DNA from: Desulfobacterales bacterium | GTDB lineage: Bacteria > Desulfobacterota > Desulfobacteria > Desulfobacterales > C00003060 | Reading direction: 5' to 3' | DNA length: 27,311 nucleotides | Assembly: GCA_030629475.1 (NCBI GenBank) | Contig: DAOVOU010000001.1 | Span: 1-27,311, forward strand | In this document: piece by piece, positions 4,702 to 26,776 of the stretch | How positions within the stretch are numbered: the stretch's first letter is position 1 | Layout of the letters: every line of letters starts with the position of its first letter | Position numbers and translations under genes: made by a program | The notes under the pieces: generated by a model | Seen by the model: the letters and a program-made list of their open reading frames with translations, nothing else | Databases searched by the model: none | What the model was told of the DNA's origin: nothing

Positions 4702-6348
4702 ATGGACACAAGATCGCACAGCCAAAACGCCACACTCGGGTGGTGGCGGCACAATGGAACACTCCCTTCATCCAGGGAGGAGACCCTCCAAGAGGCGATT
4801 TACGATATTCACCGGCCGGTCGCGATCGTGGCAAAGGACGGAAAGTATGCCCTTGCAGAGAGCGGCGTGGCACTTATGGGTGAAGGGGAAAACAATGCCG
4901 GTGGACTTCCCATTGCCGCGTATGTCCCGTCGTGCCCTCTCAAGAACCTGGGAGACGCCACTTTTTGTGCCAACTATGGTCTTGAATATCCGTATCTTGC
5001 CGGATCAATGGCCAATGGCATCTGCTCGGCCGAGATCGTGGAGGCCATGGGAAGGGGCGGGATGCTCGGTTTTTTTGGCGCGGCCGGCCTTCCGCTTCAG
5101 GCCATTGAGGCAGCTATTGACCGCATTGCCTCTTCTCTTGGCGACCGTCCTTTTGGGTTTAACCTGATTCACAGCCCCAATGATCCGGATCTGGAAGCCG
5201 CCGTGGCGGACCTTTACCTTCGCAGGAATATCCGGCTCGTCGAGGCATCTGCCTATCTCGATTTGACCTTGCCCGTGGTCCGCTACAGGGTACATGGCAT
5301 CTACCAGGACCCTTCCGGGCGTATTATCACGCCCAATCGCATCATTGCCAAGGCCTCACGGGTCGAGGTGGCCTCCAAGTTCTTTGCCCCGCCGCCAGAG
5401 GAGTTCTTGACGACCCTGGTGGCATCAGGGGATATCACAGAAGAGCAGGCCGGGCTTGCCGGCAGAATCCCTATGGCCCAGGACCTTACTGCCGAGGCGG
5501 ATTCTGGCGGACACACGGACAACCGGCCGGCCATCACCCTGCTGCCGACCCTGCTGGCGCTACGTGATCGGCTGCAGGCCGAATACGGTTACGAGGAGCC
5601 CCTGCGCGTGGGCGCGGCAGGCGGGATCGCCACGCCTGCTTCTGCCTCAGCCGCCTTTTCCATGGGAGCCGCCTATGTGCTTACCGGGACCATTAACCAG
5701 GGCGCGGTCGAAGCCGGGACCTCTGACATGGTGCGCGAGATGCTTGCCGAGACTAAGCAGGCAGATATCACCATGGCCCCGGCGGCCGACATGTTTGAGA
5801 TGGGAGTAAGAGTCCAGGTCCTAAAACGTGGGACCATGTTTGCCATGCGGGCCGCAAGATTATACGATATCTATCATAGGTGTGAGAGCCTGGAAGCCAT
5901 CCCCCCAGCCGAGCGGAACACACTGGAACGAAGCATCTTTCGAGCCCCCCTTGAAAGAATCTGGGAAGAGACCAGGACCTATTTCCAGGAACGGGATCCA
6001 CGCCAGATCGCGCGGGCTGACAGCGATCCCAAGCATCGCATGGCCCTGGTTTTTCGTTGGTATCTTGGCCAGGCATCACGCTGGGCCACTCTTGGGGACG
6101 CTTCTCGCAAGATAGATTGCCAGGTGTGGTGCGGCCCTGCCATGGGGGCATTCAATGCATGGGTCAAGGGCTCTTTCCTGGAAGACCCAAAGAATCGTCG
6201 TGTCGTGACTATTGCCCTTAATATCCTTTACGGCACGGCAGTGATTGTGCGTCTCAATTCGTTGCGGTATCAAGGGGTCTCTTTGCCACCGGAATGGGTC
6301 GTACTGAAACCACTACGGTTGGAAAAAATCATGGACATCGTCAAATAG
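4702..6348 (+). CDS. pfaD: PUFA-synthase-type FMN-dependent enoyl reductase PfaD
   Basis: GSMANGI, FGAAGL, AEADSGGHTDNRP, VGAAGGIATP, VLKRGTMFAMRA, QVWCGPAMGAFN: PfaD/FabK-like family motifs. Exact start uncertain. Confidence 0.93.
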   Translation: MDTRSHSQNATLGWWRHNGTLPSSREETLQEAIYDIHRPVAIVAKDGKYALAESGVALMGEGENNAGGLPIAAYVPSCPLKNLGDATFCANYGLEYPYLAGSMANGICSAEIVEAMGRGGMLGFFGAAGLPLQAIEAAIDRIASSLGDRPFGFNLIHSPNDPDLEAAVADLYLRRNIRLVEASAYLDLTLPVVRYRVHGIYQDPSGRIITPNRIIAKASRVEVASKFFAPPPEEFLTTLVASGDITEEQAGLAGRIPMAQDLTAEADSGGHTDNRPAITLLPTLLALRDRLQAEYGYEEPLRVGAAGGIATPASASAAFSMGAAYVLTGTINQGAVEAGTSDMVREMLAETKQADITMAPAADMFEMGVRVQVLKRGTMFAMRAARLYDIYHRCESLEAIPPAERNTLERSIFRAPLERIWEETRTYFQERDPRQIARADSDPKHRMALVFRWYLGQASRWATLGDASRKIDCQVWCGPAMGAFNAWVKGSFLEDPKNRRVVTIALNILYGTAVIVRLNSLRYQGVSLPPEWVVLKPLRLEKIMDIVK

Positions 6349-6426
6349 CTAGTGCCTGTTCGTGCTTTGTATTTCGAGTTTTTGACGCGTGTAAATCAAG
6401 ATTGTTGGTTATTGAGTTCAATTGCC

Positions 6427-6491
6427 AGGTGTCAGTGTTCAGGTTTCAGCTCTTTAGGTTTCTCGATCCTGACACCCGAAACCTGACACCT
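6427..6491. repeat. Heptad-periodic hairpin element between pfaD and pfaA
   Basis: AGGTGTC-AGTGTTC-AGGTTTC-AG ... CTGACAC-CCGAAAC-CTGACAC-CT: imperfect inverted arms made of 7 bp units. Confidence 0.75.
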
Positions 6492-6614
6492 TTTCCCCAA
6501 ACCTAATACGCAGCAGATGGGCATGGATTTCCTCATTGCCAATAGACGTGATTTACACCCTTTTTGACCGAAAAACAGGGTTTTTGGTCAACCACTAACT
6601 AAGGATCATTTGTA

Positions 6615-9600
6615 ATGAAAAAGAACAAGCAGACAACTGAAGGTGGGGGAAATCCCCAGATTCCAGTTGCCATCATCGGTATTGGATGCCTTTTTCCCAA
6701 GGCCGAGAATCTTGGGGCCTATTGGGCGAATATCAAGAACCGTGTGGATGGCATTACCGATATTCCCAAGACCCACTGGGATCCTGACGACTATTATGAT
6801 CATGATCTGGGTGCAAAGGACCGTACCTGTGCCAGGCGTGGCGGTTTTCTTTCGCCTGTGGAGTTTAACCCACTTGAGTTCGGGATCTCGCCGCGGGACA
6901 TAGAGGCGATTGATACCACGCAGCTTCTGGGGCTCTTGATAGCCAGGGAGGCCCTTGAAGATGCCGGGTACGGCAGGAAACGGCAATTTGACAGGTCACG
7001 CACCAGTGTGATCCTGGGGGTGACCGGAGCACTGGAACTCGTCATCTCGCTGGGCGCGCGATTGGGTCACCCTCTGTGGCGCCGTGCGCTAAAGGAAGCC
7101 GGGGTAGATGAGGCAACAACTGAGGACGTGGTTGAGCGGCTTGGCGACTCTTATGTAGGCTGGCAGGAGAACTCCTTTCCGGGCCTCCTTGGAAACGTGG
7201 TTGCCGGGCGCATTGCAAATCAGCTCGATCTGGGCGGGACCAACTGTGTGGTTGACGCCGCCTGTGCCAGTTCGCTAAGCGCGCTTCATCTTGCAAACCT
7301 CGAACTGGCGGCCGGCCGGTCTGACATGGTGGTAACAGGCGGGCTTGACACCTTCAACCACATCTTTATGTATACCTGTTTCAGCAAGACCTTTGCCCTT
7401 TCTCAAGCCGGAGATGCCAGGCCCTTTGACCAGGAGGCAGACGGCACCATCCTGGGTGAAGGGATCGGTCTTGTGGTGCTAAAGCGTCTTGAAGATGCCA
7501 GGAGGGATGGGGATAAGATCTATGCCGTTATCCGCGGCCTCGGCACCTCCAGTGACGGCAAGGACAACGCCATTTATACCCCGAGCAGGGAGGGACAGAT
7601 CAGGGCCATGCAGCAAGCTTACCGCCTGGCCGGGGTGACTCCTGACACTATTGACCTGGTTGAAGCCCACGGGACAGGGACCAGGGTGGGGGATGAGATT
7701 GAGACAAAGGCCCTTGTGGACGTGTACCGATCCGGTCACAGGCAAGGGACCTGGTGTGCCCTGGGGTCGGTAAAATCACAGATCGGGCACGCCAAGGCAG
7801 CGGCAGGCGTGGCCGGACTGATCAAGGCCTCCATGGCCCTTTACCACAAAGTGCTGCCGCCCACCATAAAGGTTACCCGCCCGTTCAAAAGCGTGGCACC
7901 TGGAAACTCATCCTTTTACGTAAACATTGAAAAACGTCCCTGGATGCCGCGGACGGAGCATCCCCGCAGGGCCGTGGTGAGCTCTTTTGGTTTTGGCGGC
8001 AGTAACTTCCATTGTGCGCTCGAAGAGGATGAACGTGAAAAGCCGGGGATCGACTGGGACAACGATGTGCAGATCCTCGCATTCTCTGCCAATAGCAAGG
8101 ATGATCTCCTATCAGCCCTTGAGAAATGGCCTCTTGATCTCACCTGGGAAGAGATTGTATCCAGGGCCGCTGTGACACGGGGCGATTTTAGTCCTGAGCA
8201 CGGTTTTCGTCTGGTCCTGGTCATTGAAAAGGGCGGCACAGATCCGGCAAGCAGCATTCGCCAGGCCCTTTCCCGGCTTTCCGGGCAGGAGGAAGAAGCT
8301 TCGTGGCACACCCCTGATGGCGTCTATTTTGGCTCACAAGCAAATTCCGGAAAACTCTGTGTCCTTTTTCCCGGACAAGGTGCCCAGTACGTGGGCATGC
8401 TTCGAGACGTGGCCTGCCAGTTTCCCCAAATGCAGGATGCCCTCGCAGAGGCCGACACGGTTTTTTCGGAACACGGCAACGGAGATTCTGATTCACGGCT
8501 GAGTGACCATATCTATCCTCACCCGGAATTCAGCGATAACGAACGTCTCAAAAATGAAGATACCCTGCGGGATACGCGGGTGGCCCAGCCAGCGATCGGG
8601 GCGGTCAGTTTAGGGCTTTTCAGGATCCTGGAACACTTCGGTGTGGCTCCTGATGCGGTTGCCGGACACAGCTTCGGCGAACTCGTGGCCCTTTGTGTGT
8701 CTGGCCGTTACCAAACGACAACACTTCACAGCCTTTCTAATCTCCGCGGCCGGCTCATGGCCGGAAATGGCGGCCAACACGGCAGCATGCTTGCCGCACA
8801 GGCCCCGGCCGAGGATCTCGTGCATATCGTGCAAGCAAGTGGGCTTGGTCTTGTCATCGCCAACAAGAATGCCCCTGAACAAACCGTGGTTTCCGGGCCG
8901 ACCCATGAGATCGACCAGGCGGCCGGACTTCTTGGCGAGAAGGGGATCCGGCACAAGCGGCTCAACGTGTCTGCCGCCTTTCACAGCCCCCTCGTGTCGC
9001 ATGCGCTATCGCCGTTTAGCGAGGCCCTGGAAAACATCTATTTTTCAGCAGCCAGTATCCCGGTCTATGCCAATAGCACGGCCAGGGAGTATCCCCAGGA
9101 TGAAGCACAGGCCCGGGAGGTGCTGGCCTCCCAGTTGGTGAGCCCTGTGGAGTTTGTGCAAGAAATTGAGAATATGTACGAGGCTGGGGTGCGGGCGTTT
9201 GTTGAAGTCGGGCCGGGCCGTACGCTGACCGGACTTGTCACGTCGATTCTAAAGGATCGAAGGCATACGGCACTGGCAACTGATGCCGCAAGGGGTAAAC
9301 GATCAGGGATCATTGATCTGGCACGCCTTCTTGCCCATCTTGCCTCACTCGGTTTTGCGATTCAGTTGGATAAGTGGGAAGATGCCGCAAGAGAACCCAC
9401 AGAGACCGATGAGAAGAAACCTGCCTTTACGGTCTCTATTTGTGGGGCGAACTACTTTAAACCAAAGCCGGCAAAGCCGGCCGTAAGGCCTGTTAGTAAA
9501 CCTGTTAGTAAAATAGACAGATCTGTAAAAGAGATTCCGCATACCAGAGAGACCACGATACCGATGAATAGAGCTCATGTTTCTGAGCATGTTTCGTGTC

Positions 9601-12600
9601 GTTGCCAGGAGGATCAGGTGGATAGAGTGAGCAGCCCTTCCGAACCGGCACAGTTGCAGACGGACAGGCGCCCAATGCCAGAGGCGACACACGGGGTCGC
9701 AGCATCCCTGGCGGAGGCCTTGCGGCTTACCCAGAACAACATGGCCACGCTCGAGAGGTTTCAGGCCGAGACTGCAGAACTCCACCGTCAGTTTCTCGCG
9801 GGCCAGGAAAAGGCACAGAAAACCCTGCAATCGCTGATTGAACAACAGCAACAGCTCTTTCAAACGGCCTGGGGGGCCGGAGGGGCGATTCAAGCCGTGG
9901 AGACCGTACCAGAGCCTCCCCGCGATGGATTGGAACCGATTGCGGCATCAACACCCGACATGCCCGACATGCCCGACATGCCCGACAAGGCCGACATGCC
10001 CGACAAGGCCGCTCCGGCCGCAGAGGGTGATGAGGAGTATATTGAGAAGACGCTCCTTGAGGTGGTGGCAGAAAAGACCGGATACCCGGTGGAAATGCTT
10101 TCCTTAGAGATGGGGCTCGATTCTGACCTGGGTATTGACTCGATCAAGCGGGTGGAGATCCTCTCAGCCCTGGGCAAGAAGCTTCCTGATATGCCGTCAG
10201 TAGGGACCGAGCATTGGGGAAGCCTCCAGACGCTGGGACAAATTGCACAATTCCTGAGTGGCCAAAAGGATCTGGAAGAGAGCAAGGAGATTGAAGATGC
10301 CGCGGTTCAGACCTTGAGCCTGGAAGAAAGCGTATCCGAGAAGCCGGAGAGCCGAGAAGATACAGAAGATGCAATTGAAAGGCACGTACCCATGCCCGTA
10401 AGCCTCAATGACCACCCGGCTCGCAAGGGGATCACATTGCCCAGGGGGGGGCGCATCTGGGTGGCCGGGGACGGCTCTGCCCTGGCATCCGGGATCGTGG
10501 AAGAATTGAAACAGCGCGGTTATCGACCGGAATTGATTCATCTGGAAGCAGGAGGGCGGCTGGAGCCGCCTTCCCGGCTTGAGGGTTTGCTCATACTGTC
10601 GCAGGCGCCCAGGGTCGGGCATGATTTCCTGAAATCGGCATTTCATCTGCTGCAACAGGCCGGGCCTGTCTTGCGCCAGGCGGGGCGAAACCGCGGGGCT
10701 GTGCTTGCCACAGTGTCGCGTCTTGACGGGGCATTCGGACTCTACGGTCTTAATGGCAAGAGTGATCCCCTTTCCGGCGGGCTTGCCGGGCTCTCAAAGA
10801 CAGCGAGACATGAGTGGCCTGAAGTCCATTGCAAGGCCATGGACATTGATGCGGATGATGACAATGTGGAACAAATCGCCAGGGCCATCGCAGATGAGAT
10901 GTTCCTTACAGGCCCTGCAGAGGTTGGCATATCATCACGGGGCAGGATCAGCCTGGAGCTTTGCCCGGCGCCTATCAAGACCTGCCAGGTGACTACCGCG
11001 CTTCACCCTGGGGATGTGGTCGTCATCTCCGGGGGCGCCCGCGGGGTGACTGCCGAGGCTGCCGTGGCACTTGCCAGGGCATGGCAACCGGCTTTGGCGT
11101 TGTTGGGACGAAGCCCTCTCCCCCGTCCTGAGCCGGACTGGCTGGCCGGTCTTGTTGACGAGGTCTCCGTCAAGAAAGCCCTGCTTGAACACGCGGACAA
11201 GCCAATGGCCCCGAGAGAAATCGAGAGCGAGTACCACTCGATCATGGCCAACCGGGAAATCATCAAGAACCTTGAGCGTATCAATGCGGCTGGTTCGCGC
11301 CTGATTTACCGGTCAGTCGATGTCCGTGATCAGGAGGCCGTAGATGCGGTCATTAAGGAGATCCGGGCAGAACTCGGGCCGATCCGCGGGCTTATACACG
11401 GGGCAGGGACACTTGCCGATCGCCTGATTGAGGAAAAGACGCCTGAGCAGTTCGAGCTGGTCTACTCGACCAAGGTGAACGGGCTTATATCCCTCCTTTC
11501 CGCCCTTGAGTCAGAAGATCTCAAGTTTATGGGCCTCTTCTCATCGTCTACAGGCCGTTACGGCCGCACAGGTCAGGTCGACTATGCAGTGGCAAATGAG
11601 GTATTGAATAAGATGGCGCAAGAGCAGGCCCGTGAGCGGCCAGATTGTCGCGTGGTCGCCTTTAACTGGGGACCCTGGGACGGAGGGATGGTCACCCAGG
11701 CCTTAAAGAAGATGTTTCAGGACGAAGGTGTGGGACTGATCCCTCTTGAGGCAGGAGCCGAATACCTTGTCCGGGAACTCAGCTCCAACGGTGAACGGCC
11801 CGTGGAGGTGGTGGTTCTTGGAAAAGGCACTGCCATCCCGGCCGAGCAGACCGGGCATGGGTGCGAGGAAGGACCTTCAACATCCCCGTCGTACGCGGTG
11901 GCCCTGGAATATACGCTCTCGGTTGACGAGTATCCCTTCTTGAGGTCCCACGTGATTGATGGCCAGGCGGTCCTCCCAATGGCCGTCATCATCGAGTGGC
12001 TGGGCCACGGGGCCATGCACGGCAACCCGGGTTTGAAGTTTCATGGATTCAACGACCTTGAGATCCATTCCCGTTTGGCCCTTGACGGAAATGAGACCGT
12101 TCCCATTCGCATACGCGCAGGCAGGGCAAGAAGAGATGGGAGTGACTTGCTGGTCCCTGTGCAGTTGTGTTGCGTGGACGGCCCAGGAGAGATCGTTCAT
12201 GCCCAGGCAGATATTGTGCTGACCACTCGTATGGAGGCGGGGACACCGCGCTTTGCCGAGCCTGCCCTCAAACCGTATCCTCAAAATGGCAAGATTTACT
12301 CAAACGGCTCCCTCTTTCACGGCGAGGATTTTCCCGGCATAGAGAATATCGAAGGGTATTGCGATCAGGGGATGGTAGCCTGGAGCCGGTCAGCGCCTTC
12401 TCCCTCAGAGTGGATAAAACAACCCCTCCGGCAAAACTGGCTGTCAGACCCCCTTGTGCTTGATTCAAGCTTCCAGATGATGATCCTCTGGAGCCTGCAG
12501 GCGCATGGCGTCCCGTCACTTCCGGTATCGGCAAGCAGGTACCGCCAGTTTCAAACCGGCTTTTCCAAAAACGGAGTTCGAATCGTGATCCGGATTGCGG

Positions 12601-12743: not shown

Positions 12744-12832
12744 ACCAAGAGTCCGTTCAGGCATGATTAAAGATAATTCCTGCAACGCTCTTGTCTTGAG
12801 ATTGTTGCAAGAATACCGTACAATCCAGCAGC

Positions 12833-13287: not shown

Positions 13288-13309
13288 ATTTGGTCGATCC
13301 GATTAATGA
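13235..13309. repeat. Dispersed TTAGGGCTCG...AGATTTGGGTT element, copy 1
   Basis: Aligns with 26756-26872; overlaps the 3' end of the DUF4143 remnant. Confidence 0.7.
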
Positions 13310-13777: not shown

Positions 13778-13987
13778 CCTAAAGTGATCGGTTCCAGGTT
13801 CAGGGTTCAAGGTTCAAAGGTTATAGTCTACTGATATCCTTAACTTTATAACACAATGCTTAGATTAGCCTCTTTCACCCATTGGGTGAAACATAACATT
13901 CGTCCCTATTGACGCGTCATCCTTTTGCTAACAGCCAGTTAGGGCTCTTCAACCGGGAACCGTGAACGTTGAACCGCTCAACCCAGG
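13778..13987. mobile_element. 210 bp non-autonomous MITE-like insertion with 5 bp TSD (TGACA)
   Basis: TGACA at 13773-13777 and 13988-13992 flanks the insert. Ends CCT...AGG; imperfect ~40 bp inverted arms of GGTTCA-type heptads. Removing it restores the frame ...NSL-T-VLGFRPED. Confidence 0.85.
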
Positions 13988-17600: not shown

Positions 17601-20600
17601 GCACGCAAGTGGTGGCAAGACCAAGGGGCTGGTACTGCAAAGCCCCTTGGTCTCGCGCTGGTTGGCAGGGACGGACACGAATTGATGGCACAGCTCGGAA
17701 AGGCTCAAAAGGTAGTTCAGGGCAGATCAGGCAAACTTGCTCCCAATGAGCGCATCTTCTTCTCCTCTGCCCCCCTTGGGAAAGCCGGAGAGGTGGCCTT
17801 TGTCTTTCCCGGTTCCGGCAACCATTTTGTTGGTATGGGACAGGACTTATCAGCAGCCTGGCCTGAGATCTTTCGCCATCAGGACCAGGAGAACGATTAC
17901 CTCCACGATCAGTTTGTTTCTGATTACTTCTGGCACGGAACAAGTAAACCAGAGCATGACGGAGACCACAAGGCAATGCTCTTTGGCCAGGTCTGCCTGG
18001 GGGCTGCGGTGAGTGATATCCTTTGCCATCTGGGCATAAAGCCCGATGCGGTTATCGGCTACAGCCTGGGTGAATCTGTCGGGCTCTTTGCCTTCCGGGC
18101 ATGGCCTGCGCGCGATGAGATGCTGGAAAGAATGAACGCCTCTTCGCTTTTTACCGATGATCTGGCCGGGAGATGCCGAGCCGCGCGAAAAACATGGAAC
18201 GTTTCCGAGGATGCGAATATCACATGGGCTGTTGGGGTCGTTGATTGCCCGGCAGAAACGGTTCGTGAGGTCATAAAGAAAATCCCCCAGGTCTACCTGT
18301 TGATTGTAAACACACTGCATGAGTGCGTGGTGGGGGGTGAAAAGGACGCACTTTACGCCTTGGTGGAAGAATTAGGCTGTGGCTTTGTGCCTCTACACGG
18401 CGTGACCACAGCGCATTGCGAGGTCGTAAAGGCCGTTGAGAAAGAGTACAGGGACCTGCACCTTTTTGAGACCACGCCTCCTGCCGGTATCCGGTTTTAC
18501 AGCACGGCCTGGGGAAAGGCATATCCGGTTAATCGCGAAAACGCGGCGGATTCCATCCTGGCCCAGGTGCTGACGACTCTGGATTTCCCGAGAGTGATCA
18601 ACAATGCCTATGCCGATGGGGTGCGTCTTTTTCTGGAGATCGGACCAGGGGCGTCGTGTACACGGATGATCGCAAGCATTCTTGGCGATCGTCCTCACAT
18701 GGCCTCTTCGGCCTGCTTTTCCGGCAAGGGGAGTATCTCTTCAATACTGGAACTGCTCGGCCGGTTGATTGCCGAACGTGTGCCTGTTGATCTGGAGCCC
18801 CTTTACGGAAACGTCAGCCTTGCTTTGGGCCATCAGGATAGAGCTGAGAAAAAGGTGTCAAGATACCTCACCATACCAACGGACGGCCCGTCCTTCCAGG
18901 TGCCTCATCCTCCCGGGGCCCAAACGCCTCAGATCAAGACAACTCAGATCAAGATACCCCCTTCGGCCCGTAACTATTCAGTCCCCCCCTTTACGAAAGG
19001 GGGGAGCGAGCGGTTGCCTTTAGCCCGGCCGGTAAAAGAGGGTTTGTTTGAACCCCTCATGGACCAAATAGGCGCGGCCGGAGATGCCCGGGCAAAGGCC
19101 CACGGAGCGTACCTGCGCCTTTCTGACCAAATTGCGCACACGGTTTCAAAGAATCTCTCCTTTCAGATGGACCTCCTTGACATGATGAGGCGCTCAGGCA
19201 TCGTGCCTCACAAAGAGGCAGAATCGTCCTTACCTGAGCCTGCCGCCTCAATGCAGCCCGCTGCCAGCCTCACACGGCCGGATCGGGATGGGAAGCCCCC
19301 GGCCTTTGACCGTGACCTGTGCCTGGAGTTTGCCAGGGGATCGATCTCAAATGTCCTGGGGCCTGACTTTGTTGAGATAGATTCTCATCCCACCCGGGTC
19401 CGTTTGCCGGATGAGCCGCTCATGCTCGTGGACCGCATCCTCGAGGTCCACGGCCAACCCCGCTCCATGACCTCGGGAAGCGTAGTGACAGAACACGACA
19501 TCCACCCGGATGCATGGTATCTGGATAATGGCCGTATACCCACCTGTATCGCCGTAGAAGCAGGCCAGGCAGATCTCTTCTTGTCCGGCTACCTGGGGAT
19601 TGATTCTATGACCAGGGGTCTCGCTGTCTACAGGCTCCTGGATGCGGATGTGACCTTTCACAACCCATTGCCGGGGCAGGGAGAGGTGATCCGCTATGAT
19701 ATCCGGATTGAAGGCTTTTTCCAACAGGACAATACGTATCTGTTTCGATTCAACTTTGACGGCACCGTGGCGGGAGCGCCCATTTTGACCATGCGAAACG
19801 GCTGTGCCGGTTTTTTCACCCAGGCGGAACTCGCTGCAGGACGCGGTATCGTGCATACCGACCTTGACAAGAGGCCGCTAAAAGGACGGCGTCCGGAGGA
19901 TTGGAAAGACCTGGTGCCAATGAAAGCCGAGGCCTACAGTGACGAGCAGATCAGTGCTTTGCGGGCAGGCGATCTAACGCTTTGCTTTGGCGCGCCCTTT
20001 GAGGGGCTTTCCGTGGGCGATCCCCTTACAATTCCTGGAGGAAGGATGAAACTCGTGGATCGGGTGCTTCATCTTGATCCACACCGGGGGCGCTACGGGT
20101 TGGGGACGATCCGGGCCGAGGCCGACATACATCCTGATGACTGGTTCTTGACCTGCCACTTTGTGGATGACCGCGTGATGCCAGGAACACTTATGTTCGA
20201 GTGTTGCCAGCACACCTTGAGGATCTTCTTGCTCCGTATGGGGTGGGTGGGTGAAAAAGAAGAGGTGGTCTGTGAACCTGTCCCTGGCGTTACAAGCCGG
20301 CTGAAATGTCGCGGCCAGGTGATCGAGACAACAAAGAAGGCCGCATATGAGATCTCGATAAAGGAACTCGGTTACAACCCTGAACCGTACGCCATTGCAG
20401 ATGCCCTGATGTATGCGGACGGAAAACCGATAGTGGAGATCACGGACATGTCTGTCCGCCTTTCAGGGTTGACCCGCGAGAAAGTGACACGTCTATGGGA
20501 AGAAAAGACCCAATTGCGGCCTGCAAAAAAAGAGGCGATCTTTGACCGCGACAAGATACTCGCCTTTGCGGTTGGCAAGCCGTCAGAGGCCTTTGGAGAA

Positions 20601-21626
20601 CCGTACCGCATTTTTGACAAGGGGCGTGTCATCGCGCGTCTCCCTGGCCCGCCATACCAGTTCATAGACCGGATCACTGAAATTCACGCCGAACCGTGGA
20701 AGATGGCGCATGGCGGGAGGATCGAGTCGCAATACGATATCCCCTCTGATGCCTGGTATCTTGCAGCCAACCGGTACGGCATGCCCTTTGCCGTGCTCTT
20801 AGAGGTTGCCCTGCAGCCGTGCGGCTGGCTGGCCGCCTACATCGGCTCAGCCCTTACGAGCGACATTGACCTTTCCTTTCGGAACCTGGCCGGAACTGCC
20901 GTGCAACTGCAGCGTGTGGACGAGCACACAGGGACTTTGACTACAAAGGTGACAATTACAAAGGTTTCTGCTTCCGGTGGGATGATTATTCAGCATTATG
21001 ATTTTGATGTAAGCAGTAGTGCGGGCGCCGTGTATCAGGGAAACACGTATTTTGGTTTTTTCTCAAAGGCCGCCCTGGCCCAGCAGATCGGCATTGTTAA
21101 TGCTCAACCTTACCAGCCCAAAGAAGAGGAGATCGCCAGAGGCCGTTCTTTCCCCTTCCCCAGTGAACCACCGTATCCGGAAGAGATGCTCAGGATGATC
21201 GATCACGTTCGGCTTCTTGTCCCGGATGGGGGGCCGGACGGACTGGGGCTAATCCGGGGAACCAAAAGCGTGGATCCGGACGAATGGTTCTTTAAGGCCC
21301 ACTTCTACCAGGACCCGGTCTGTCCGGGTTCTCTCGGCCTTGAATCATTCCTGCAGTTGCTCAAGGTCGTTGCAGTTGAGAGATGGGGCATCCACCCTGA
21401 TGCACGAATAGAAACAGTTGCCATCGGAGAAGAGCACCGCTGGATATATCGCGGCCAGGTCATCCCAACAGACACAGAGGTGACAGTGGAAGCCGTAGTC
21501 ACACGCCTTGATGATGACCGCCGTATCCTCTATGCTGACGGATACCTGAGCGTTGACGGCCGTATTATCTACCGGATGGAGGGGTTTGCTGTACATATAC
21601 CATGCTATACACACATGTTTACTTAG
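14670..21626 (+). CDS. pfaBC: PfaBC-type fusion: KS-CLF-AT-(pseudo-DH/DH)x2 FabA-like
   Basis: KS1: DAACASS, ECHATGT, KSNIGH. Second KS has Cys replaced by Glu (LSSEESS, 16674-16676), i.e. a chain-length factor. AT: GYSLGE. FabA-like DH: CHFVDDRVMPGTL and AHFYQDPVCPGSL, each preceded by a His-less hot-dog fold. Confidence 0.93.
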   Translation: MKKEPTIAIVGIGGIFPGAHTLEDFWDNVSGGIDAARDVPEGRWLLDPRDVLKSTPGAADKVYSIRACFIEDFKLDVAGLGLDPDSIARLDPMCHLLLHAGREAFSDAVTQNLDKRRVGVIIGNIALPTEKSTALALEILGPTFEEKIPGLNNVISPVATEPINRYVTGLPGGLLARALGLAGATFTIDAACASSLYALKLGADALKAGRADAMLVGGLSRPDCMYTQMGFSQLRALSAQGRCAPFDVHGDGLVVGEGAGIVVIKRLEDALRDGDHIYGTIRGTGLSNDVRGNLLAPDSEGQLRAMRPAYTQAGWRPWDVDFIECHATGTPVGDRVEFDSLRTLWGDNDSKGRQCVLGAVKSNIGHLLTGAGAAGLIKALLAIKNKTLPPTANFVSPNPGLRMPDSPFEVLSQSRPWQERDKKAPRRAAVSAFGFGGINAHVLIEEWLPETGNVRVQVPVQVPGVRAIPIAIVGMEASFGPWTGLRAFQERVLGGDATARPGVDRQWWGVAESNWFQAGGLTPSRFRGFFIDKLRVPLGKYRIPPKELEEMLPQQLLMLEVAAGALKDGGYSDEEGLQTGLFIGIGLDLCTTNFHFRWSLSERAREWTKTLGLDLTHEDLAAWITALRDAAGEPLTANRTMGALGGIVASRIAREFRIGGPSHTLSSEESSAMSALEVGVRALQRGEIDQALVGAVDFTGDIRALLSTHAGRPYSATGRVRPFDIGADGTIPGEGAAAVMLKKLDDAVRDANRIYAVIRGIGAATGGRADSLVPGTHTYESALERAYQDAGVDPATIRLLETHGSGSPEEDCMEASSLRRFFGQDKERTSLFLSSVKADIGHAGAASGLASLVKASISLYQEILPPLRNSESCLPGIEKSGFVLPQAPQYWLHNRAEGPRRAGVSSFSVDGNCTHVVLEAFEGPSGQARAVDRLQPLGVRDEALFAIEGADADALRAQLDRLHQHVASDPSRPIEYWARKWWQDQGAGTAKPLGLALVGRDGHELMAQLGKAQKVVQGRSGKLAPNERIFFSSAPLGKAGEVAFVFPGSGNHFVGMGQDLSAAWPEIFRHQDQENDYLHDQFVSDYFWHGTSKPEHDGDHKAMLFGQVCLGAAVSDILCHLGIKPDAVIGYSLGESVGLFAFRAWPARDEMLERMNASSLFTDDLAGRCRAARKTWNVSEDANITWAVGVVDCPAETVREVIKKIPQVYLLIVNTLHECVVGGEKDALYALVEELGCGFVPLHGVTTAHCEVVKAVEKEYRDLHLFETTPPAGIRFYSTAWGKAYPVNRENAADSILAQVLTTLDFPRVINNAYADGVRLFLEIGPGASCTRMIASILGDRPHMASSACFSGKGSISSILELLGRLIAERVPVDLEPLYGNVSLALGHQDRAEKKVSRYLTIPTDGPSFQVPHPPGAQTPQIKTTQIKIPPSARNYSVPPFTKGGSERLPLARPVKEGLFEPLMDQIGAAGDARAKAHGAYLRLSDQIAHTVSKNLSFQMDLLDMMRRSGIVPHKEAESSLPEPAASMQPAASLTRPDRDGKPPAFDRDLCLEFARGSISNVLGPDFVEIDSHPTRVRLPDEPLMLVDRILEVHGQPRSMTSGSVVTEHDIHPDAWYLDNGRIPTCIAVEAGQADLFLSGYLGIDSMTRGLAVYRLLDADVTFHNPLPGQGEVIRYDIRIEGFFQQDNTYLFRFNFDGTVAGAPILTMRNGCAGFFTQAELAAGRGIVHTDLDKRPLKGRRPEDWKDLVPMKAEAYSDEQISALRAGDLTLCFGAPFEGLSVGDPLTIPGGRMKLVDRVLHLDPHRGRYGLGTIRAEADIHPDDWFLTCHFVDDRVMPGTLMFECCQHTLRIFLLRMGWVGEKEEVVCEPVPGVTSRLKCRGQVIETTKKAAYEISIKELGYNPEPYAIADALMYADGKPIVEITDMSVRLSGLTREKVTRLWEEKTQLRPAKKEAIFDRDKILAFAVGKPSEAFGEPYRIFDKGRVIARLPGPPYQFIDRITEIHAEPWKMAHGGRIESQYDIPSDAWYLAANRYGMPFAVLLEVALQPCGWLAAYIGSALTSDIDLSFRNLAGTAVQLQRVDEHTGTLTTKVTITKVSASGGMIIQHYDFDVSSSAGAVYQGNTYFGFFSKAALAQQIGIVNAQPYQPKEEEIARGRSFPFPSEPPYPEEMLRMIDHVRLLVPDGGPDGLGLIRGTKSVDPDEWFFKAHFYQDPVCPGSLGLESFLQLLKVVAVERWGIHPDARIETVAIGEEHRWIYRGQVIPTDTEVTVEAVVTRLDDDRRILYADGYLSVDGRIIYRMEGFAVHIPCYTHMFT
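18984..19004. repeat. CCCCCCTTT-nnn-AAAGGGGGG REP-like hairpin inside the pfaBC linker
   Basis: Perfect 9 bp stem with ACG loop, translated in frame as PPFTKGG between the AT and DH regions. Confidence 0.6.
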
Positions 21627-22645
21627 AGACAATCGGGTACGAACTGGCACCTGTAGTCGTTACAACAGCCAAACTGGAGGCACGGCTCAAGCCGTTGTAC
21701 GAAGCGCTCCATTTTCAGCCCGGGCAATTGGAGGCGCTGACAGGGATCGCGGAGCGCCGCTGGTGGGAGCCGGATACGCCTCTTTCAAAAGGAGCGATTG
21801 CGGCTGGACGCAAGGCCCTTGAGGCGAGCAGTGTGAGCGCCGGCGATATCGAGACATTGATATATGCGGGTGTGTGTCGCGAAAATTTTGAGCCGGCTAC
21901 GGCCTGCCGGGTGGCCCATGGGATCGGTGTGAGTCCAACAGCAGCGCTCTATGACATAAGCAACGCCTGCCTGGGCGTATTAAATGGAATGTTTGAAATC
22001 GCAAACCGCATAGAGTTAGGACAGATCCGGGCAGGCATGGTGGTCTCGTGCGAAACGGCCAGGGAGATTAACGAAACCATGATAGCCCGGATGCTGGAAG
22101 AAAAGAGGATGGATCATTTTATCTCGTCCCTGGCCACACTCACAGGCGGCGCAGGAGCGGTAGCCACTCTTCTTACGGACGGCACCTTTGCCGGTTCTTT
22201 AAGACATCGACTTCTCGGGGGCGTGATGCGATGCGCCCCGGAGTTTCATCACTTGTGTCACTGGGGCATGGAGACAAAATCTACAGGCGGTATGCGCCCC
22301 TTTATGGCCACGGACTCGGTCTCTGTCCTCAAGCACGGTGTGAAACTGGGACATCTGACGTGGCTTGATTTGCTCAACGAGATGGATTGGACCATCGACA
22401 AGGTCGATAGAGTCATCTGCCATCAGGTGGGAGCTGAACATCAAAAGCAGATTCTCAATGCCCTGGGCGTGCCGGAAGAAAAGGATTTTCCGACGTACGA
22501 ATATCTCGGCAATATCGGCACGGTGTCGTTGCCGATCACCGCAGCCCTGGCTGACGAACGAGGGTTTCTGCGAAACGGCGATCGTGTAGCATTTCTGGGG
22601 ATTGGGAGCGGGCTTAATTGTATGATGCTGGGATTGGAATGGTAG
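21602..22645 (+). CDS. oleA: OleA acyl-CoA:acyl-CoA alkyltransferase (thiolase/FabH fold, head-to-head condensation)
   Basis: OleA catalytic set visible: Glu in RENFEPATA, Cys in DISNACLG, His in ICHQVG, Asn in GNIGTVSLP. Starts 25 nt inside the pfaBC 3' end. Confidence 0.9.
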   Translation: MLYTHVYLETIGYELAPVVVTTAKLEARLKPLYEALHFQPGQLEALTGIAERRWWEPDTPLSKGAIAAGRKALEASSVSAGDIETLIYAGVCRENFEPATACRVAHGIGVSPTAALYDISNACLGVLNGMFEIANRIELGQIRAGMVVSCETAREINETMIARMLEEKRMDHFISSLATLTGGAGAVATLLTDGTFAGSLRHRLLGGVMRCAPEFHHLCHWGMETKSTGGMRPFMATDSVSVLKHGVKLGHLTWLDLLNEMDWTIDKVDRVICHQVGAEHQKQILNALGVPEEKDFPTYEYLGNIGTVSLPITAALADERGFLRNGDRVAFLGIGSGLNCMMLGLEW

Positions 22646-22729
22646 AGGAAATCGGCATCCTTCATTCCTCGATTTACACTTTTCAAGAATGCGGGCGCCA
22701 AGAGATAAATTCTTTTGTTCGTACTTTTT

Positions 22730-22822
22730 GGTGTCAGGTGTCAGGTGTCAGGTGTCAGGGGTGAATAAATGCCAGAGCTGAACACTGAAACCTGAACACT
22801 GAAACCTGAAACCTGAAACCTG
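22730..22822. repeat. Heptad-periodic hairpin element between oleA and oleB
   Basis: (GGTGTCA)x4 left arm; CTGAACA/CTGAAAC x6 right arm. Confidence 0.8.
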
Positions 22823-22890
22823 GGATGGTAAAAAAAGTGTAAACTACTTTACGGCGAAAATGAAGGATGCCAGGAAATCAATAGAAAGGT

Positions 22891-22924
22891 AACCTTGAAC
22901 GGTGAACTCTGAACCTGTGAACGC
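22891..22924 (+). repeat. Solo TGAAC-heptad arm overlapping the oleB start
   Basis: AACC-TTGAACG-GTGAACT-CTGAACC-TGTGAACG parallels the right arm of the 13778-13987 element (AACC-GGGAACC-GTGAACG-TTGAACC-GCTCAACC). Confidence 0.55.
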
Positions 22925-23795
22925 CTACCTCTATCCTTTCAAAAGCCACTACATGGACCTGGATGGTTTGAGATACCATTTCCTGGATGAGGGGGCCGGA
23001 GATCCTGTGGTCATGCTACACGGGAATCCTACCTGGTCGTTCTATTACAGGGATCTGGCCCTGGCCCTCAAAGATACGTGTCGCGTGGTTGTGCCGGATC
23101 ATATCGGCTGCGGGCTGTCAGACAAACCGGATGACAGGCGTTACGAGTATAGACTCCATCGCCGTGTCCAGGACTTAACCGCCCTGTTGGAGCATCTCGA
23201 TATCCATGATCGTATTACCCTAATTCTTCATGACTGGGGTGGCATGATCGGCATGACATACGCAACGCGTTTTCCGGAACGTATAAAGCGGCTGGTCGTG
23301 CTCAATACTGCCGCATTCCATTTGCCCGCATCCAAACCCCTTCCCCGTAGCTTGCGGATCTGCCGGCATGCGGTTATCGGTGCGCTCCTGATCAGGGGGC
23401 TTAACGCCTTTTGCTGGGCAGCCGCGTTCTTAGGATGCAAAGGGAGCCGCATGTCCCGTCAGGTGCGCCGGGGGTATCTCGCGCCCTATGACTCGTGGCG
23501 CAACCGGATTGCGGTTCACCGTTTTGTCCAGGATATCCCCTTAAAACCCAAAGACCTGAGTTACGCTCTGGTGACCGAAGTGCAACAGGGGCTCCACCGG
23601 TTACGCAAGATACCGATGCTCATTGTCTGGGGAGAAAAAGATTTTGTCTTCGACCGCCATTTCCTGCGCGAATGGACCCGCTATTTCCCTGAAGCCGAAC
23701 TCCACAGGTTTCCGTATGCGGGTCATTATGTGCTGGAAGACGCAGGTGATGAAGTTATTCCTTTGATAGAGGTTTTCCTGGAAGACACCGTGTGA
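22902..23795 (+). CDS. oleB: OleB beta-lactone decarboxylase (haloalkane dehalogenase-like alpha/beta hydrolase)
   Basis: YPF...LHGNPTWSFYYR, PDHIGCGLSDKP, nucleophile LHDWGG, WGEKDFVFD, AGHYVLED; lies between oleA and oleC. GTG start uncertain. Confidence 0.88.
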   Translation: MNSEPVNAYLYPFKSHYMDLDGLRYHFLDEGAGDPVVMLHGNPTWSFYYRDLALALKDTCRVVVPDHIGCGLSDKPDDRRYEYRLHRRVQDLTALLEHLDIHDRITLILHDWGGMIGMTYATRFPERIKRLVVLNTAAFHLPASKPLPRSLRICRHAVIGALLIRGLNAFCWAAAFLGCKGSRMSRQVRRGYLAPYDSWRNRIAVHRFVQDIPLKPKDLSYALVTEVQQGLHRLRKIPMLIVWGEKDFVFDRHFLREWTRYFPEAELHRFPYAGHYVLEDAGDEVIPLIEVFLEDTV

Positions 23796-24100
23796 TTGAA
23801 GATTGACGATCGAAGATTGGTTGTACCCGTTCACAGGTTTCAGGTGACGGGTGTCAGGTTTCAGGGAGAACGCAGTGACAACTAAGATAATTTCCGGGTG
23901 GAAAAAATTGCCTCTCACATGGACTTAAACAAGCTTACAGGTGTCAGGAATGAGAAACTTAAGATCTGAAACCCCTGGCCCAGACCCTGGTTGGTGCCTT
24001 GGTAGTCCATCGGAGACACCGAAGCGCCAGGGCAGGCTGAACACTGAAACCTGACACCTGAACACTGATACTCAACTTCTCAATTACTCAACCATAACTC
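23794..24100. repeat. Nested heptad-repeat element between oleB and oleC
   Basis: Left arm CAGGTTT/CAGGTGA/GGGTGTC at 23834-23865; right arm CTGAACA/CTGAAAC/CTGACAC at 24037-24068. Outer GATTGAA-type (23794-23823) and CTCAA-type (24071-24100) periodic tracts. Confidence 0.7.
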
Positions 24101-24116: not shown

Positions 24117-25784
24117 ATGAACCATGCAAGTTTTACCAATATTGCTTCTTTCCTGCCGGCCATGGCAAAGAGCCGGCCCAATGCCCTGGCTGTGGTGTTT
24201 CCACACGGACGTGACCGGTATGGGCGCGTGAGTTATACACATCTTACGTTTACACAATTGGACCAGGAGAGTGGTCGATTGGCCCGCGGCCTTGAACGTA
24301 TCGGCATACGACGAGGAGTGCGGACAATTCTCATGGTGAGTCCGAGCCTGGAGTTCTTTGCGCTTACATTTGCCCTGTTCAAGGCGGGCGCTGTGCCCGT
24401 GATGATTGATCCGGGAGTAGGGATCAAGAACCTGGGCCGGTCTATTGCTGAAACAGGACCCCGTGCCTTTATCGGCACACCAAAGGCTCATGCGGCGCGT
24501 GTTATGTTCGGATGGGGACGAAGGACCATACGAATCAAGGTCATGGCCGGCCCAGGTCTTCTCCCTGGAGCTAAGACCCTTGGAGAGGTCCGACAGATAG
24601 GCAAAGATCCTGTCGCATACAGGATGGCCGAGACCGAAGCAGACGAGATGGCGGCCATCCTCTTTACAACCGGGAGCACCGGACCACCAAAGGGCGTGGT
24701 CTACACCCATGAGATTCTCGTTCAGCAGGTGGAACTCCTCAAAGAAGAATACGGCATTGAGCCGGGTGAGATTGATCTGCCGACCTTTCCCCTCTTTGCC
24801 CTGTTTGCCCCGGCACTGGGCATGACCGCGATTATTCCTGACATGGACGCCACCCGGCCAGGCCAGGTTGATCCGGAGCGGATCATCGAAGCTATTCGTG
24901 ATTTCGGGGTGACCAACATGTTCGGTTCTCCTGCATTGATCAACCGGGTAGGACGCTACGGGGCGCCACGCGGGATAAAATTCGCCACAATCAAACGCGT
25001 CATATCAGCCGGGGCACCAGTACATGCTGACACAATTTGGCGGTTTTCTCAGATGTTTTCTCCCGGTGTTCAGGTTTTTTCGGGCTATGGGGCTACGGAA
25101 GCGCTTCCGGTCTGTTCGGTCGGAAGTGACGCCATTCTCAATGAGACCCGGAATCAGACAGACCAAGGCAAAGGGGTGTGCGTGGGGCATCCTGTGAAAA
25201 GGATCACGGTCAAGATTATCAGGATTGTTGACACGCCGATCTCGTCATGGTCCGATGATCTCCTAATTCCCGCGGGTCACATTGGTGAGATAGTGGTAAA
25301 GGGTCCTATTGTAACACGCAAGTATTACCACCGGCCCGAATCGACTGCTCTTGCAAAGATCCCGGACCACAAAAACAACGGCTTTTACCATCGGATGGGT
25401 GATCTCGGCTACCTGGACAAGACAGGTCGTCTCTGGTTTTGCGGGCGCAAGTCCCAGCGGGTGATCCTTAAGGAGAGAACCCTCTTTACTATCCCTTGTG
25501 AGGGGGTGTTTAACACGCACAGGCAGGTTTTCCGTTCAGCCCTTGTGGGTGTTGCCAAAGGTGACTCGGTACTGCCGGTGCTGTGTGTGGAACTGGAACC
25601 GGAAGTTAGGATGGCGAACCGGCAAAAACTCCTGGAAGAACTCCTGGAACTCGGGCAGGGTTATGAGCACACACGGGACATCCGGACGATCCTCTTTCAC
25701 CCATCCTTTCCGGTGGACATTCGTCATAATGCCAAGATCTTTCGCGAAAAGCTCGCCGTATGGGCACGCAAGGAGTTGTCATGA
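24117..25784 (+). CDS. oleC: OleC beta-lactone synthetase (ANL adenylate-forming superfamily)
   Basis: ILFTTGSTGPPKG, YGATEA, HRMGDLGY, C-terminal DIRHNAKIFREKL typical of OleC; operon context. Confidence 0.9.
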   Translation: MNHASFTNIASFLPAMAKSRPNALAVVFPHGRDRYGRVSYTHLTFTQLDQESGRLARGLERIGIRRGVRTILMVSPSLEFFALTFALFKAGAVPVMIDPGVGIKNLGRSIAETGPRAFIGTPKAHAARVMFGWGRRTIRIKVMAGPGLLPGAKTLGEVRQIGKDPVAYRMAETEADEMAAILFTTGSTGPPKGVVYTHEILVQQVELLKEEYGIEPGEIDLPTFPLFALFAPALGMTAIIPDMDATRPGQVDPERIIEAIRDFGVTNMFGSPALINRVGRYGAPRGIKFATIKRVISAGAPVHADTIWRFSQMFSPGVQVFSGYGATEALPVCSVGSDAILNETRNQTDQGKGVCVGHPVKRITVKIIRIVDTPISSWSDDLLIPAGHIGEIVVKGPIVTRKYYHRPESTALAKIPDHKNNGFYHRMGDLGYLDKTGRLWFCGRKSQRVILKERTLFTIPCEGVFNTHRQVFRSALVGVAKGDSVLPVLCVELEPEVRMANRQKLLEELLELGQGYEHTRDIRTILFHPSFPVDIRHNAKIFREKLAVWARKELS

Positions 25785-26776
25785 AGGCACTGGTTACAGG
25801 AGGTGGGGGATTTCTGGGCGGGGCAATCGTGCGCCTGCTTCTCGAGCGCGGGGTAGAAGTTGTCAGCTTTTCCCGCCGGCATTATCCGGAACTTGAACAG
25901 ATTGGTGTCAAGCAGACGCAGGGCGATCTGGCTGACCAGGACGCAGTGGCCTCAGCGGTTGAAGGGTGCGATACGGTCTTTCATGTGGCAGGCAAGCCTG
26001 GAATCTGGGGACCGTATGAGGAGTACTACCGTACCAATGTAGAAGGGACGGAAAACGTCATTTCCGCCTGTCAAAGGCATGGGGTGAGGCGTCTTATCTA
26101 TACTAGCTCTCCAAGTGTAATCTTTGACGGCAAGGACATGGAAGGAGTGGATGAGTCGGTCCCGTATCCCGATCATTACGAAACCCACTATCCCAAGACC
26201 AAGGCCATTGCTGAAAGAATGGTCTTGAAGGCCAATGCTCCTGAACTCGCCACAGTGGTGTTGCGTCCGCATCTGATATGGGGGCCTGGAGACAATCACC
26301 TGGTGCCGCGTATTATTGACAGGGGCAAAAGAGGCCGGTTGTGTCAAATAGGCCATCGAGCAAACCTAATTGATTCAGTCTATGTCGACAATGCGGCAGA
26401 GGCGCATCTGCTGGCGGCAGAGCGACTCGCGCCCGGCTCCGCGGTGGCCGGCAAGGTCTACTTTGTCTCGCAGGGGGAACCGCTGCCGGTCTGGGAGCTT
26501 ATCAACCGGATATTGGCGGCGGCAGGACTCCCCCCCGTGACCCGACGGGTCCCGTCCGGGGCTGCCTATGCAGCAGGATGGATCCTGGAATCGCTATACA
26601 AGGGCTTCAAACTAAAGGGGGAGCCCCCGATGACCCGCTTTGTGGCCCGTGAACTCTCCACAGCCCACTGGTTCAATACTGATGCTGCCCGTCGCGATCT
26701 CGGTTATACCCCGCAGATATCGATTGATGAAGGGATGCAGCGATTGGCGCGATACTTAGGGCTCGCCCAAAAATAA
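25781..26776 (+). CDS. oleD: OleD 2-alkyl-3-oxoalkanoate reductase (extended SDR / 3-beta-HSD-like)
   Basis: AAGGAG RBS and ATG 25781 overlapping the oleC stop (ATGA). Motifs TGGGGFLG, YTSSPSV, YPKTK (YxxxK), LRPHLIWGPGD. Confidence 0.9.
   Translation: MKALVTGGGGFLGGAIVRLLLERGVEVVSFSRRHYPELEQIGVKQTQGDLADQDAVASAVEGCDTVFHVAGKPGIWGPYEEYYRTNVEGTENVISACQRHGVRRLIYTSSPSVIFDGKDMEGVDESVPYPDHYETHYPKTKAIAERMVLKANAPELATVVLRPHLIWGPGDNHLVPRIIDRGKRGRLCQIGHRANLIDSVYVDNAAEAHLLAAERLAPGSAVAGKVYFVSQGEPLPVWELINRILAAAGLPPVTRRVPSGAAYAAGWILESLYKGFKLKGEPPMTRFVARELSTAHWFNTDAARRDLGYTPQISIDEGMQRLARYLGLAQK

Follow-up and report, generated by a model that had tools for sequence, protein, structure and literature searches.

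The DNA analyzed here, in the following termed the window, is a stretch of 27,311 nucleotides that represents an entire contig (DAOVOU010000001.1) of a Desulfobacterales bacterium. It is the longest contig of a metagenome-assembled genome (MAG; GCA_030629475.1) of 2.25 Mb that consists of 351 contigs, is 77% complete, and was obtained from cold-seep metagenomes. Seven genes on one strand of the window encode a synthase of the polyunsaturated fatty acid (PUFA) type, composed of PfaD, PfaA, and a fused PfaBC, and the four enzymes OleA to OleD of the head-to-head olefin pathway. We regard it as probable (about 0.8, by analogy with characterized systems) that these genes form a pfa-ole "supercluster" of the kind found in Geobacter bemidjiensis, and that its product would be a C31:9-type polyene hydrocarbon with a very long chain. 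In G. bemidjiensis, a strict anaerobe and producer of C31:9, the genes pfaD-pfaA-pfaB-pfaC-oleABCD-pfaE are arranged in tandem (Yoshida, 2016; PMC4882568), and ole genes are often linked to Pfa-type clusters (Shulse and Allen, 2011; PMC3098273). The cluster of the window is an ordinary new copy of this known pairing, which is common in many phyla; the caution in the initial annotation of this DNA that the layout may not be new was correct, since it has been published for Geobacter (PMC4882568, PMC3098273).

The initial annotation had read the order pfaD-pfaA-pfaBC-oleA-oleB-oleC-oleD on one strand with intact catalytic motifs. Reading frames, profile matches, and motifs confirm this: seven long open reading frames (ORFs) are present on the plus strand at the positions that it had given. 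In the following list, bits are scores against the named profiles, and the domains are KS (ketoacyl synthase), AT (acyltransferase), ACP (acyl carrier protein), KR (ketoreductase), DH (dehydratase), PS-DH (polyketide-synthase-type dehydratase), and CLF (chain-length factor).

4702-6348, + strand: pfaD, FMN enoyl reductase of the Pfa synthase (TIGR02814, 636 bits, cut-off 449)
6615-12743, + strand: pfaA, KS - AT - one ACP - KR - PS-DH (TIGR02813, 1427 bits, cut-off 1010)
14670-21626, + strand: fused pfaBC, KS - CLF - AT - two FabA-type DH (Pfam, NCBIfam, and motifs in the translation)
21602-22645, + strand: oleA, head-to-head Claisen-condensing thiolase (NF006720, 485 bits, cut-off 285)
22902-23795, + strand: oleB, haloalkane-dehalogenase-type alpha/beta hydrolase, beta-lactone decarboxylase (Pfam Abhydrolase_1; haloalkane-dehalogenase models, 139-154 bits)
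24117-25784, + strand: oleC, AMP-dependent beta-lactone synthetase of the ANL superfamily (NF045785, 686 bits; NF045786, 654 bits; PRK09274, 765 bits)
25760-26776, + strand: oleD, NADPH-dependent 2-alkyl-3-oxoalkanoate reductase of the short-chain dehydrogenase/reductase type (NF042422, 458 bits; NF042423, 449 bits; 3Beta_HSD, E 2.5e-61)

The pfaD gene is present in a single copy within the MAG. In PfaA, Pfam places the KS at residues 17-420, the AT at 584-881, the PP-binding domain at 1146-1190, the KR at 1469-1689, and the DH at 1761-2023. PfaBC possesses two ketoacyl-synt matches and a FabA match of 253 bits that extends across three stretches; each of its two FabA-type DH domains is paired with a partner hot-dog fold. 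The first KS of PfaA and that of PfaBC both carry the motif DAACASS, and the two KS histidine motifs can also be read; the second KS of PfaBC lacks the active-site cysteine and can therefore be assigned as the chain-length factor. The AT domains contain GHSFGE (PfaA) and GYSLGES (PfaBC), the PS-DH domain carries HxxxGxxxxP, and two HF..D..PG motifs are found in the FabA-type dehydratases of PfaBC. The AT of PfaBC (residues 1031-1378) matches TIGR02816 (pfaB_fam) with an E value of 2e-31, and its 109 bits lie below the whole-protein cut-off of 144, as is to be expected because only the domain is present. In agreement with the initial annotation, a Pfam domain search found no C-terminal AGPAT domain (PF01553), and the window contains no thioesterase gene.

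The OleA protein can be aligned from end to end with the structures of Xanthomonas OleA (3fk5, 3row; 185 bits). The motifs EP.TA, NACL, HQV, and GNIG are conserved in this alignment, and the positions of the Cys/His/Asn triad and of the OleA-specific Glu match. OleB, which belongs to a hydrolase type with an Asp nucleophile, possesses the motifs HDWGG and, toward its C-terminus, GHY, and oleB occupies the syntenic slot behind oleA in relatives; its identification rests on haloalkane-dehalogenase models, as the profile libraries used contain no OleB-specific model. The identity to the syntenic genes of relatives amounts to 51-67% for oleC and to 51-68% for oleD, and for OleC no solved structure was matched at an E value of 1e-30 or better. 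Two pairs of genes overlap: the start of oleA is located 25 nt inside pfaBC, and oleD overlaps oleC by 25 nt.

From this set of enzymes, a route to a polyene hydrocarbon can be proposed. PfaD (enoyl reductase), PfaA (KS-AT-ACP-KR-DH), and PfaBC (KS-CLF-AT-DH2) would iteratively build a medium-chain polyunsaturated acyl thioester on the ACP of PfaA in an oxygen-free manner. In characterized systems this chain is 16:4n-3, and two such chains give hentriacontanonaene (C31:9) in Shewanella and in G. bemidjiensis (PMC6463001, PMC4882568). OleA, whose gene overlaps the end of pfaBC and which is thus probably co-translated with PfaBC, would condense two of the polyunsaturated acyl chains head to head. 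OleD would then reduce the resulting beta-keto acid, OleC would close the beta-lactone, and OleB would decarboxylate it to an internal cis-olefin. The conserved overlap of pfaBC with oleA, together with the lack of a thioesterase gene and of an AGPAT domain in the window, is consistent with the Pfa product being passed directly to OleA, an enzyme that is known to be supplied by the Pfa synthase in vivo (PMC6463001). A polyene olefin similar to C31:9 is the probable product, with chain length and identity taken from the characterized systems. A beta-lactone, which the initial annotation had entertained as an alternative product, is unnecessary as an explanation in view of the apparently intact OleB.

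The dsrA gene marks the host genus, which lives in cold-seep sediment, as a sulfate or sulfite reducer. This gene scored above its cut-off in all three near-complete genomes of the genus, which supports the earlier description of the organism as a probable anaerobe; dsrA was not found in the window's own MAG, which is 77% complete. The proposal that a Pfa synthase feeds OleABCD for the formation of a very-long-chain polyene hydrocarbon in an anaerobe is thereby supported, and it matches the published interpretation of the G. bemidjiensis cluster as well as the conserved junction described below.

G. (Citrifermentans) bemidjiensis Bem shares with the window a strictly anaerobic host, the arrangement pfaD-pfaA-pfaBC-type KS-CLF-AT-DH2-oleABCD on one strand, and the lack of an AGPAT domain, and its Pfa product is presumed to be channelled to OleA (PMC4882568, PMC3098273). 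It differs in that its pfaE gene is intact and follows oleD, whereas the phosphopantetheinyl transferase (PPTase) gene of the window lies upstream of pfaD and is a relic of 73 codons, and in that the window possesses only one ACP and a spacer of 1.9 kb with broken passenger genes between pfaA and pfaBC. So-called Type I clusters are characterized by a pfaBC fusion, occur in Deltaproteobacteria and a planctomycete, and have been tied to obligate anaerobes (PMC3098273). We assigned the window to this type by its architecture and by comparison with a Desulfuromonadales locus (L046) used as a stand-in for Geobacter, whose PfaBC and OleA are 57% and 61% identical, respectively, to those of the window.

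The pfaABCDE and oleABCD genes of Shewanella and Photobacterium represent the same enzyme families, direct a Pfa-derived 16:4 chain to OleA, and are likewise known to be linked, with pfa-ole adjacency described in Photobacterium profundum (Allemann et al., 2019; PMC6463001). In P. profundum SS9, both operons lie side by side, with the thioesterase gene pfaT between them. These systems differ from that of the window by separate pfaB and pfaC genes, several ACPs, the position of pfaD as the last gene, a hot-dog thioesterase, and the delivery of eicosapentaenoic acid (EPA) or docosahexaenoic acid (DHA) into membranes as well; the window, which lacks a thioesterase gene, has a fused pfaBC that overlaps oleA. 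The myxobacterial pfa1-pfa2-pfa3 genes possess the same order of functions as the window (enoyl reductase / KS-AT-ACP-KR-DH / KS-CLF-AT-DH), but their Pfa3 protein ends in an AGPAT domain, and the system makes free or lipid-bound PUFAs. The window has no such domain, and ole genes follow instead. The resemblance to the myxobacterial genes noted in the initial annotation concerns gene order; the closest comparator is the Geobacter/Type I cluster.

We surveyed the 80 OleA loci closest to that of the window in a collection with one genome per species; 75 of them possess enough upstream sequence for inspection. These loci span at least eight phyla and include Verrucomicrobiota, Planctomycetota, Lentisphaerota, Gamma- and Betaproteobacteria (Pseudomonadota), Elusimicrobiota, Nitrospirota, and Desulfuromonadales (Thermodesulfobacteriota), among others. 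The end of pfaBC lies no more than 400 nt from the start of oleA at 61 of the 75 loci, in most of them at -25 to +30 nt, and oleB, oleC, and oleD follow. A minority of loci (L007, L009, L014, L015, L017, L018, L021, L026, L071) have oleABCD but lack pfaBC in the 10 kb upstream. Among them are some Verrucomicrobiales, Isosphaeraceae, Desulfuromonadaceae, and Nitrospirales; the supplier of the acyl chain in these lineages is either unlinked or different.

In the order to which the window belongs, 115 of 151 sampled genomes contain OleA, and pfaBC abuts oleA at 14 of the 20 loci inspected. The junction between pfaA and pfaBC is variable in this group: 2.6-10 kb of other DNA separates the two genes, and six further loci have no pfaA within about 10 kb. 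Four of these spacers (L108:8841-11456, L119:7705-11260, L127:9088-16678, L118:7117-17781) mark a hotspot whose content differs by lineage; the annotated ones (L108, L119, L127) hold unrelated genes for a holin-like protein, TauE, an ADP-ribosylglycohydrolase, a type II secretion system protein C (T2SS-C), a hybrid histidine kinase, and a helicase. At these hotspot loci, pfaBC stays joined to oleA throughout. The variable pfaA-pfaBC junction, set against the maintained pfaBC-oleA junction, indicates that the conserved tight unit is pfaBC-oleABCD and that pfaD-pfaA forms a loosely linked second unit. Judged from gene order, the 1.9-kb spacer of the window appears as the local version of this order-wide variable junction. 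The term "hard-wired", applied to the whole assembly by the initial annotation, is consequently appropriate for pfaBC-oleABCD with its 25-nt overlap; the linkage of pfaD-pfaA is loose, in the window as in the rest of the order.

The remaining features in and next to the cluster are remnants of genes and repeated elements. For their interpretation, we used two sister genomes of the genus, G008 and G016 (the latter with 97% DNA identity to the window).

4222-4443, + strand: remnant of an Sfp-type PPTase, pfaE-like (PF01648, 25.7 bits, the match being interrupted by a stop)
6389-6561, no strand: dispersed repeat in the pfaD-pfaA spacer (dozens of copies with 75-97% identity in the sister genomes)
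12777-13240, + strand: relic of an AAA_14/DUF4143 ATPase gene (frames read; weak DUF4143 match)
13364-13777, + strand: N-terminal half of a nucleotidyltransferase, GlmU-N-like and MobA-like (PF12804, E 1e-15; GlmU profile positions 3-123)
13778-13987, no strand: insertion of 210 bp that splits the nucleotidyltransferase gene and resembles a miniature inverted-repeat transposable element (MITE); no insert in G016
13988-14403, + strand: C-terminal half of the nucleotidyltransferase, in a different frame (GlmU profile positions 118-248)

The pfaA-pfaBC spacer is 1.9 kb long, is lower in G+C content, and holds the two broken passenger genes. In the ATPase relic, a piece with the Walker A motif is fused to a C-terminal piece, and about 760 bp between them have been deleted; the two pieces match positions 1219-1364 and 2122-2437 of a G008 contig (G008:C124). 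The nucleotidyltransferase gene is intact at the same place in G016 as an ORF of 274 amino acids (L107:3620-4444), and the C-terminal half in the window is 96% identical to residues 133-274 of that protein. At the empty site in G016, the flanks of the MITE overlap by 5 nt, as expected for a target-site duplication. We considered the nucleotidyltransferase as a conserved member of the cluster and rejected this possibility, as none of the 80 OleA loci (L001-L080) carries it and the three annotated spacers of the same order hold different, unrelated genes; judged from these gene neighborhoods, it is treated as a putative genus-specific passenger. No convincing promoter or terminator was found in the pfaA-pfaBC spacer, where the counts lay at shuffle expectation and the scan was uninformative. 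A perfect G+C-rich hairpin (of the CCCCCTCCCCTCGCGGGAGAGGGTGAGGGGG type) is present at 14470-14520, about 150 nt upstream of pfaBC, and no T-run follows it.

The 210-bp MITE possesses heptamer-rich inverted ends, has 37 matches in the MAG, many of them at contig ends, and occurs in dozens of copies per sister genome; it probably accounts for a large part of the fragmentation seen in assemblies of this genus. Further dispersed repeats are located at 13237-13304, 22680-22900, 23831-23865, 24022-24071, and 26800-27311 (the contig end). Rich in tandem heptamers of the CTGAAAC/CTGAACA type, such repeats occupy nearly every intergenic spacer, including those between pfaD and pfaA, oleA and oleB, and oleB and oleC. 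The repeat at 6389-6561, at which independent contigs break and depth peaks, is paired as an inverted repeat with the oleA-oleB spacer. In public sequencing runs, word depth in the spacer repeats reaches up to about 50 times that of unique sequence, and it is higher still, and extremely high, at the 210-bp insert.

An independent assembly, from another sample of the same study, contains unbroken contigs of even depth for 6468-13264, which is the whole of pfaA and part of the ATPase relic, and for 13999-22681, which comprises the C-terminal half of the nucleotidyltransferase, pfaBC, and oleA. Its breaks are confined to short repeats (6299-6468, 13264-13275, 13804-13999, and 22681-22901), and the unique parts of the window show an even word depth (about 79-92 in run X1, 43-45 in run X2). 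Contiguity of the pfa and ole blocks, on which the initial annotation depended, is hence borne out by unbroken contigs over pfaA and over pfaBC-oleA; the block as a whole is not seamless, with the 1.9-kb spacer of broken passenger genes between pfaA and pfaBC. The seven genes comprise about 6,400 codons free of stops and frameshifts, while the neighboring passengers are visibly decayed. The ratios of nonsynonymous to synonymous substitution rates (dN/dS) relative to close kin, calculated over frames of 166-2098 codons without stops at dS values of 0.02-0.26, were 0.11-0.22 for pfaD, 0.15-0.38 for pfaA, 0.45 for pfaBC, 0.27 for oleA, and 0.50 for oleB. These values indicate purifying selection, perhaps somewhat relaxed. 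The one public "RNA" run that contained the sequence (X18) was dismissed as evidence for expression; it was flagged as probably DNA and yielded thin, divergent contigs.

PfaA of the window possesses a single PP-binding domain and a single GIDS motif, as found by Pfam, tblastn, and motif counting, whereas PfaA proteins of relatives carry two to four ACPs, these numbers being lower bounds. PUFA synthases in general contain two to more than ten ACPs (PMC4882568), and single-ACP clusters have been admitted to the wider "secondary lipid synthase" family (Shulse and Allen, 2011; PMC3098273). The sister genome G016 has two tandem ACPs (L107:215-793) where the window (10005-10259) and G008 have one. 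Collapse of an ACP array during assembly was considered and rejected, since the independent contig crosses this region unbroken, so that the single ACP is probably real; this check is limited by the fact that word depths are contig means and that G016 has two ACPs. The ACP copy number is either polymorphic within the genus or affected by assembly, and the G016 contigs break in this region.

Of the PPTase gene upstream of pfaD, the last 73 codons are left; a start codon is lacking, and a TAA stop codon lies directly upstream. This remnant shares 97% identity with residues 217-289 of a PPTase of 289 amino acids that is intact in G008 (L103:2685-3554; PF01648, 71 bits). The intact gene resides at an unrelated locus in G008, beside reverse-transcriptase (group II intron-like), IS200-like, and DUF1538 genes. 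Since the MAG is incomplete and an intact homologue exists in G008, absence of a PPTase from the real genome is not established. Other Sfp-type PPTases can stand in for PfaE in the activation of PfaA (PMC4882568), and the single ACP would be activated by a PPTase whose gene lies elsewhere.

The nearest sequence relatives of the cluster outside the genus are operons in MAGs of Verrucomicrobiota, Lentisphaerota, and Planctomycetota, hereafter PVC (L002, L004, L006, L008, L011, L049, and others). Their PfaBC proteins are 55-61% identical to that of the window, compared with 44-47% for loci of the same order, and their OleA proteins are 65-69% identical; pfaBC and oleA overlap as well, and window and PVC sequences fall into the same clade in both the PfaBC and the OleA tree. 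The PVC operons differ in that pfaA directly abuts pfaBC, PfaA has at least two ACPs, and a nucleotidyltransferase passenger is missing. A careful OleA tree puts the window beside Lentisphaerota and Verrucomicrobiota (99/95 support), together with L001, a MAG from a separate record that is 98% identical; both fall outside a well-supported clade of 19 sequences from the same order. The PfaBC tree (2245 columns) gives the same placement with 100 support in the Shimodaira-Hasegawa-like approximate likelihood ratio test (SH-aLRT), and the approximately unbiased (AU) test, based on a quick LG+G4 tree and on a group named after a tree had been seen, rejects a union with the sequences of the same order (delta lnL 68, p 0.0115). 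Heterogeneous composition and incomplete MAGs are further caveats on a transfer. Within the genus, pfaD was found in only 4 of 24 other genomes, the other 20 giving no match, so that 5 of 25 carry it when the window's MAG is counted; among the order's other families, 15 of 16 gave a match. This patchy distribution, together with the placement of PfaBC, suggests a horizontal gain: the genus may lack the usual copy of its order, and some of its members may have gained a PVC-type module. After its probable horizontal acquisition, the module became littered with MITEs and gene relics, but its seven frames are intact.

Several of our observations count against the reading of the cluster as a functional pfa-ole system of PVC-type origin. 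The MITE-bearing spacer of 1.9 kb may uncouple the expression of pfaA from that of pfaBC, and a PfaA protein with one ACP could alter flux or product. An intact PPTase was not found in the 77%-complete MAG with PF01648 and tblastn, and the relic is the sole signal. The full-length matches of OleC (686 and 654 bits) remain below the equivalog cut-offs of 850 and 900, while the PRK09274 match (765 bits) exceeds its cut-off of 478, and both full-length model scores of OleD (458 and 449 bits) are below the cut-off of 580. With respect to the origin of the module, the AU test for OleA does not reject a union with the clade of the same order (p 0.295), and the after-the-fact grouping that underlies the PfaBC test belongs on the same side.

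Some of these observations would also be expected if the cluster were inactive or decaying in this organism. The neighboring PPTase gene is destroyed, and no intact copy was found in the MAG, copies of MITEs or repeats have entered the pfaD-pfaA, pfaA-pfaBC, oleA-oleB, and oleB-oleC spacers, most genomes of the genus give no match for pfaD, and the dN/dS values of pfaBC and oleB relative to the nearest kin are rather high. We nevertheless consider decay unlikely, as the seven genes have remained open while the passengers are broken, dN/dS is below 1 throughout, and its values are inflated at low divergence (dS 0.02-0.06). Moreover, G008 keeps an intact PPTase closely matching the relic, the MAG is incomplete, and PfaE can be replaced by other Sfp-type PPTases (PMC4882568). 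The Pfa synthase might alternatively feed mainly membrane lipids, with OleABCD tapping a side stream, as in EPA-producing Shewanella. One Pfa synthase gives both EPA and C31:9 in marine gammaproteobacteria (PMC6463001), the AT within PfaBC could off-load chains, and pfaD-pfaA is loosely linked to the pfaBC-ole unit. Such a division of the product appears quite unlikely here, given that neither an AGPAT domain nor a thioesterase gene is found in the window, that the pfaBC-oleA overlap has been kept across phyla, and that C31:9, and not long-chain PUFAs, is the reported product of strict anaerobes with this layout (PMC4882568).

It is very unlikely, in our assessment, that a PVC-derived module with a single-ACP PfaA and the nucleotidyltransferase makes or modifies a product other than C31:9, for instance one with a different chain length, or a derivative that is glycosylated or activated by a nucleotide. 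Least credible of all is an assembly error that joined, at a repeat, pfaD-pfaA to a pfaBC-ole block of another place or strain. In favor of such an error, the contig stems from a MAG, the independent contigs break at each repeat, and the repeat exists in many genomic copies. Against a chimera, the 210-bp repeat is flanked by consecutive halves of a single gene, of which G016 has an intact version between pfaA and the pfaBC side; L001 carries pfaBC-oleA-oleB on one contig, word depth is even in the unique parts, and relatives as a rule show the same gene order.

Upstream of the cluster, positions 1-3972 of the window hold a run of truncated or fused genes. These are a GDPD fragment on the minus strand (151-552) in DNA with 41% G+C, a BipA/TypA gene (599-2140) without the first approximately 90 residues of the GTPase domain, a gene for a DEAD-box helicase (2147-3649) with a short GTPase-like (MMR_HSR1) stub at its N-terminus, and a C-terminal SlyD/FKBP fragment (3619-3972). 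They reflect either a deletion-rich genome or imperfect joins in the assembly.

The pfa-ole cluster described here leaves knowledge of the pathway unchanged, and its local peculiarities are modest: a single ACP, a PPTase relic, a passenger gene split by a MITE, and a probable horizontal origin. It adds one uncultured, repeat-ridden genus of cold-seep Desulfobacterales to the anaerobes that would be able to make polyene hydrocarbons in an oxygen-free manner. Very-long-chain polyene hydrocarbons are potential biomarkers in sediments, and a protective role against oxidative stress has been proposed for them. With regard to the family, the conserved unit is pfaBC-oleABCD and not the whole pfa-ole block, and it is this unit that appears to move between phyla.

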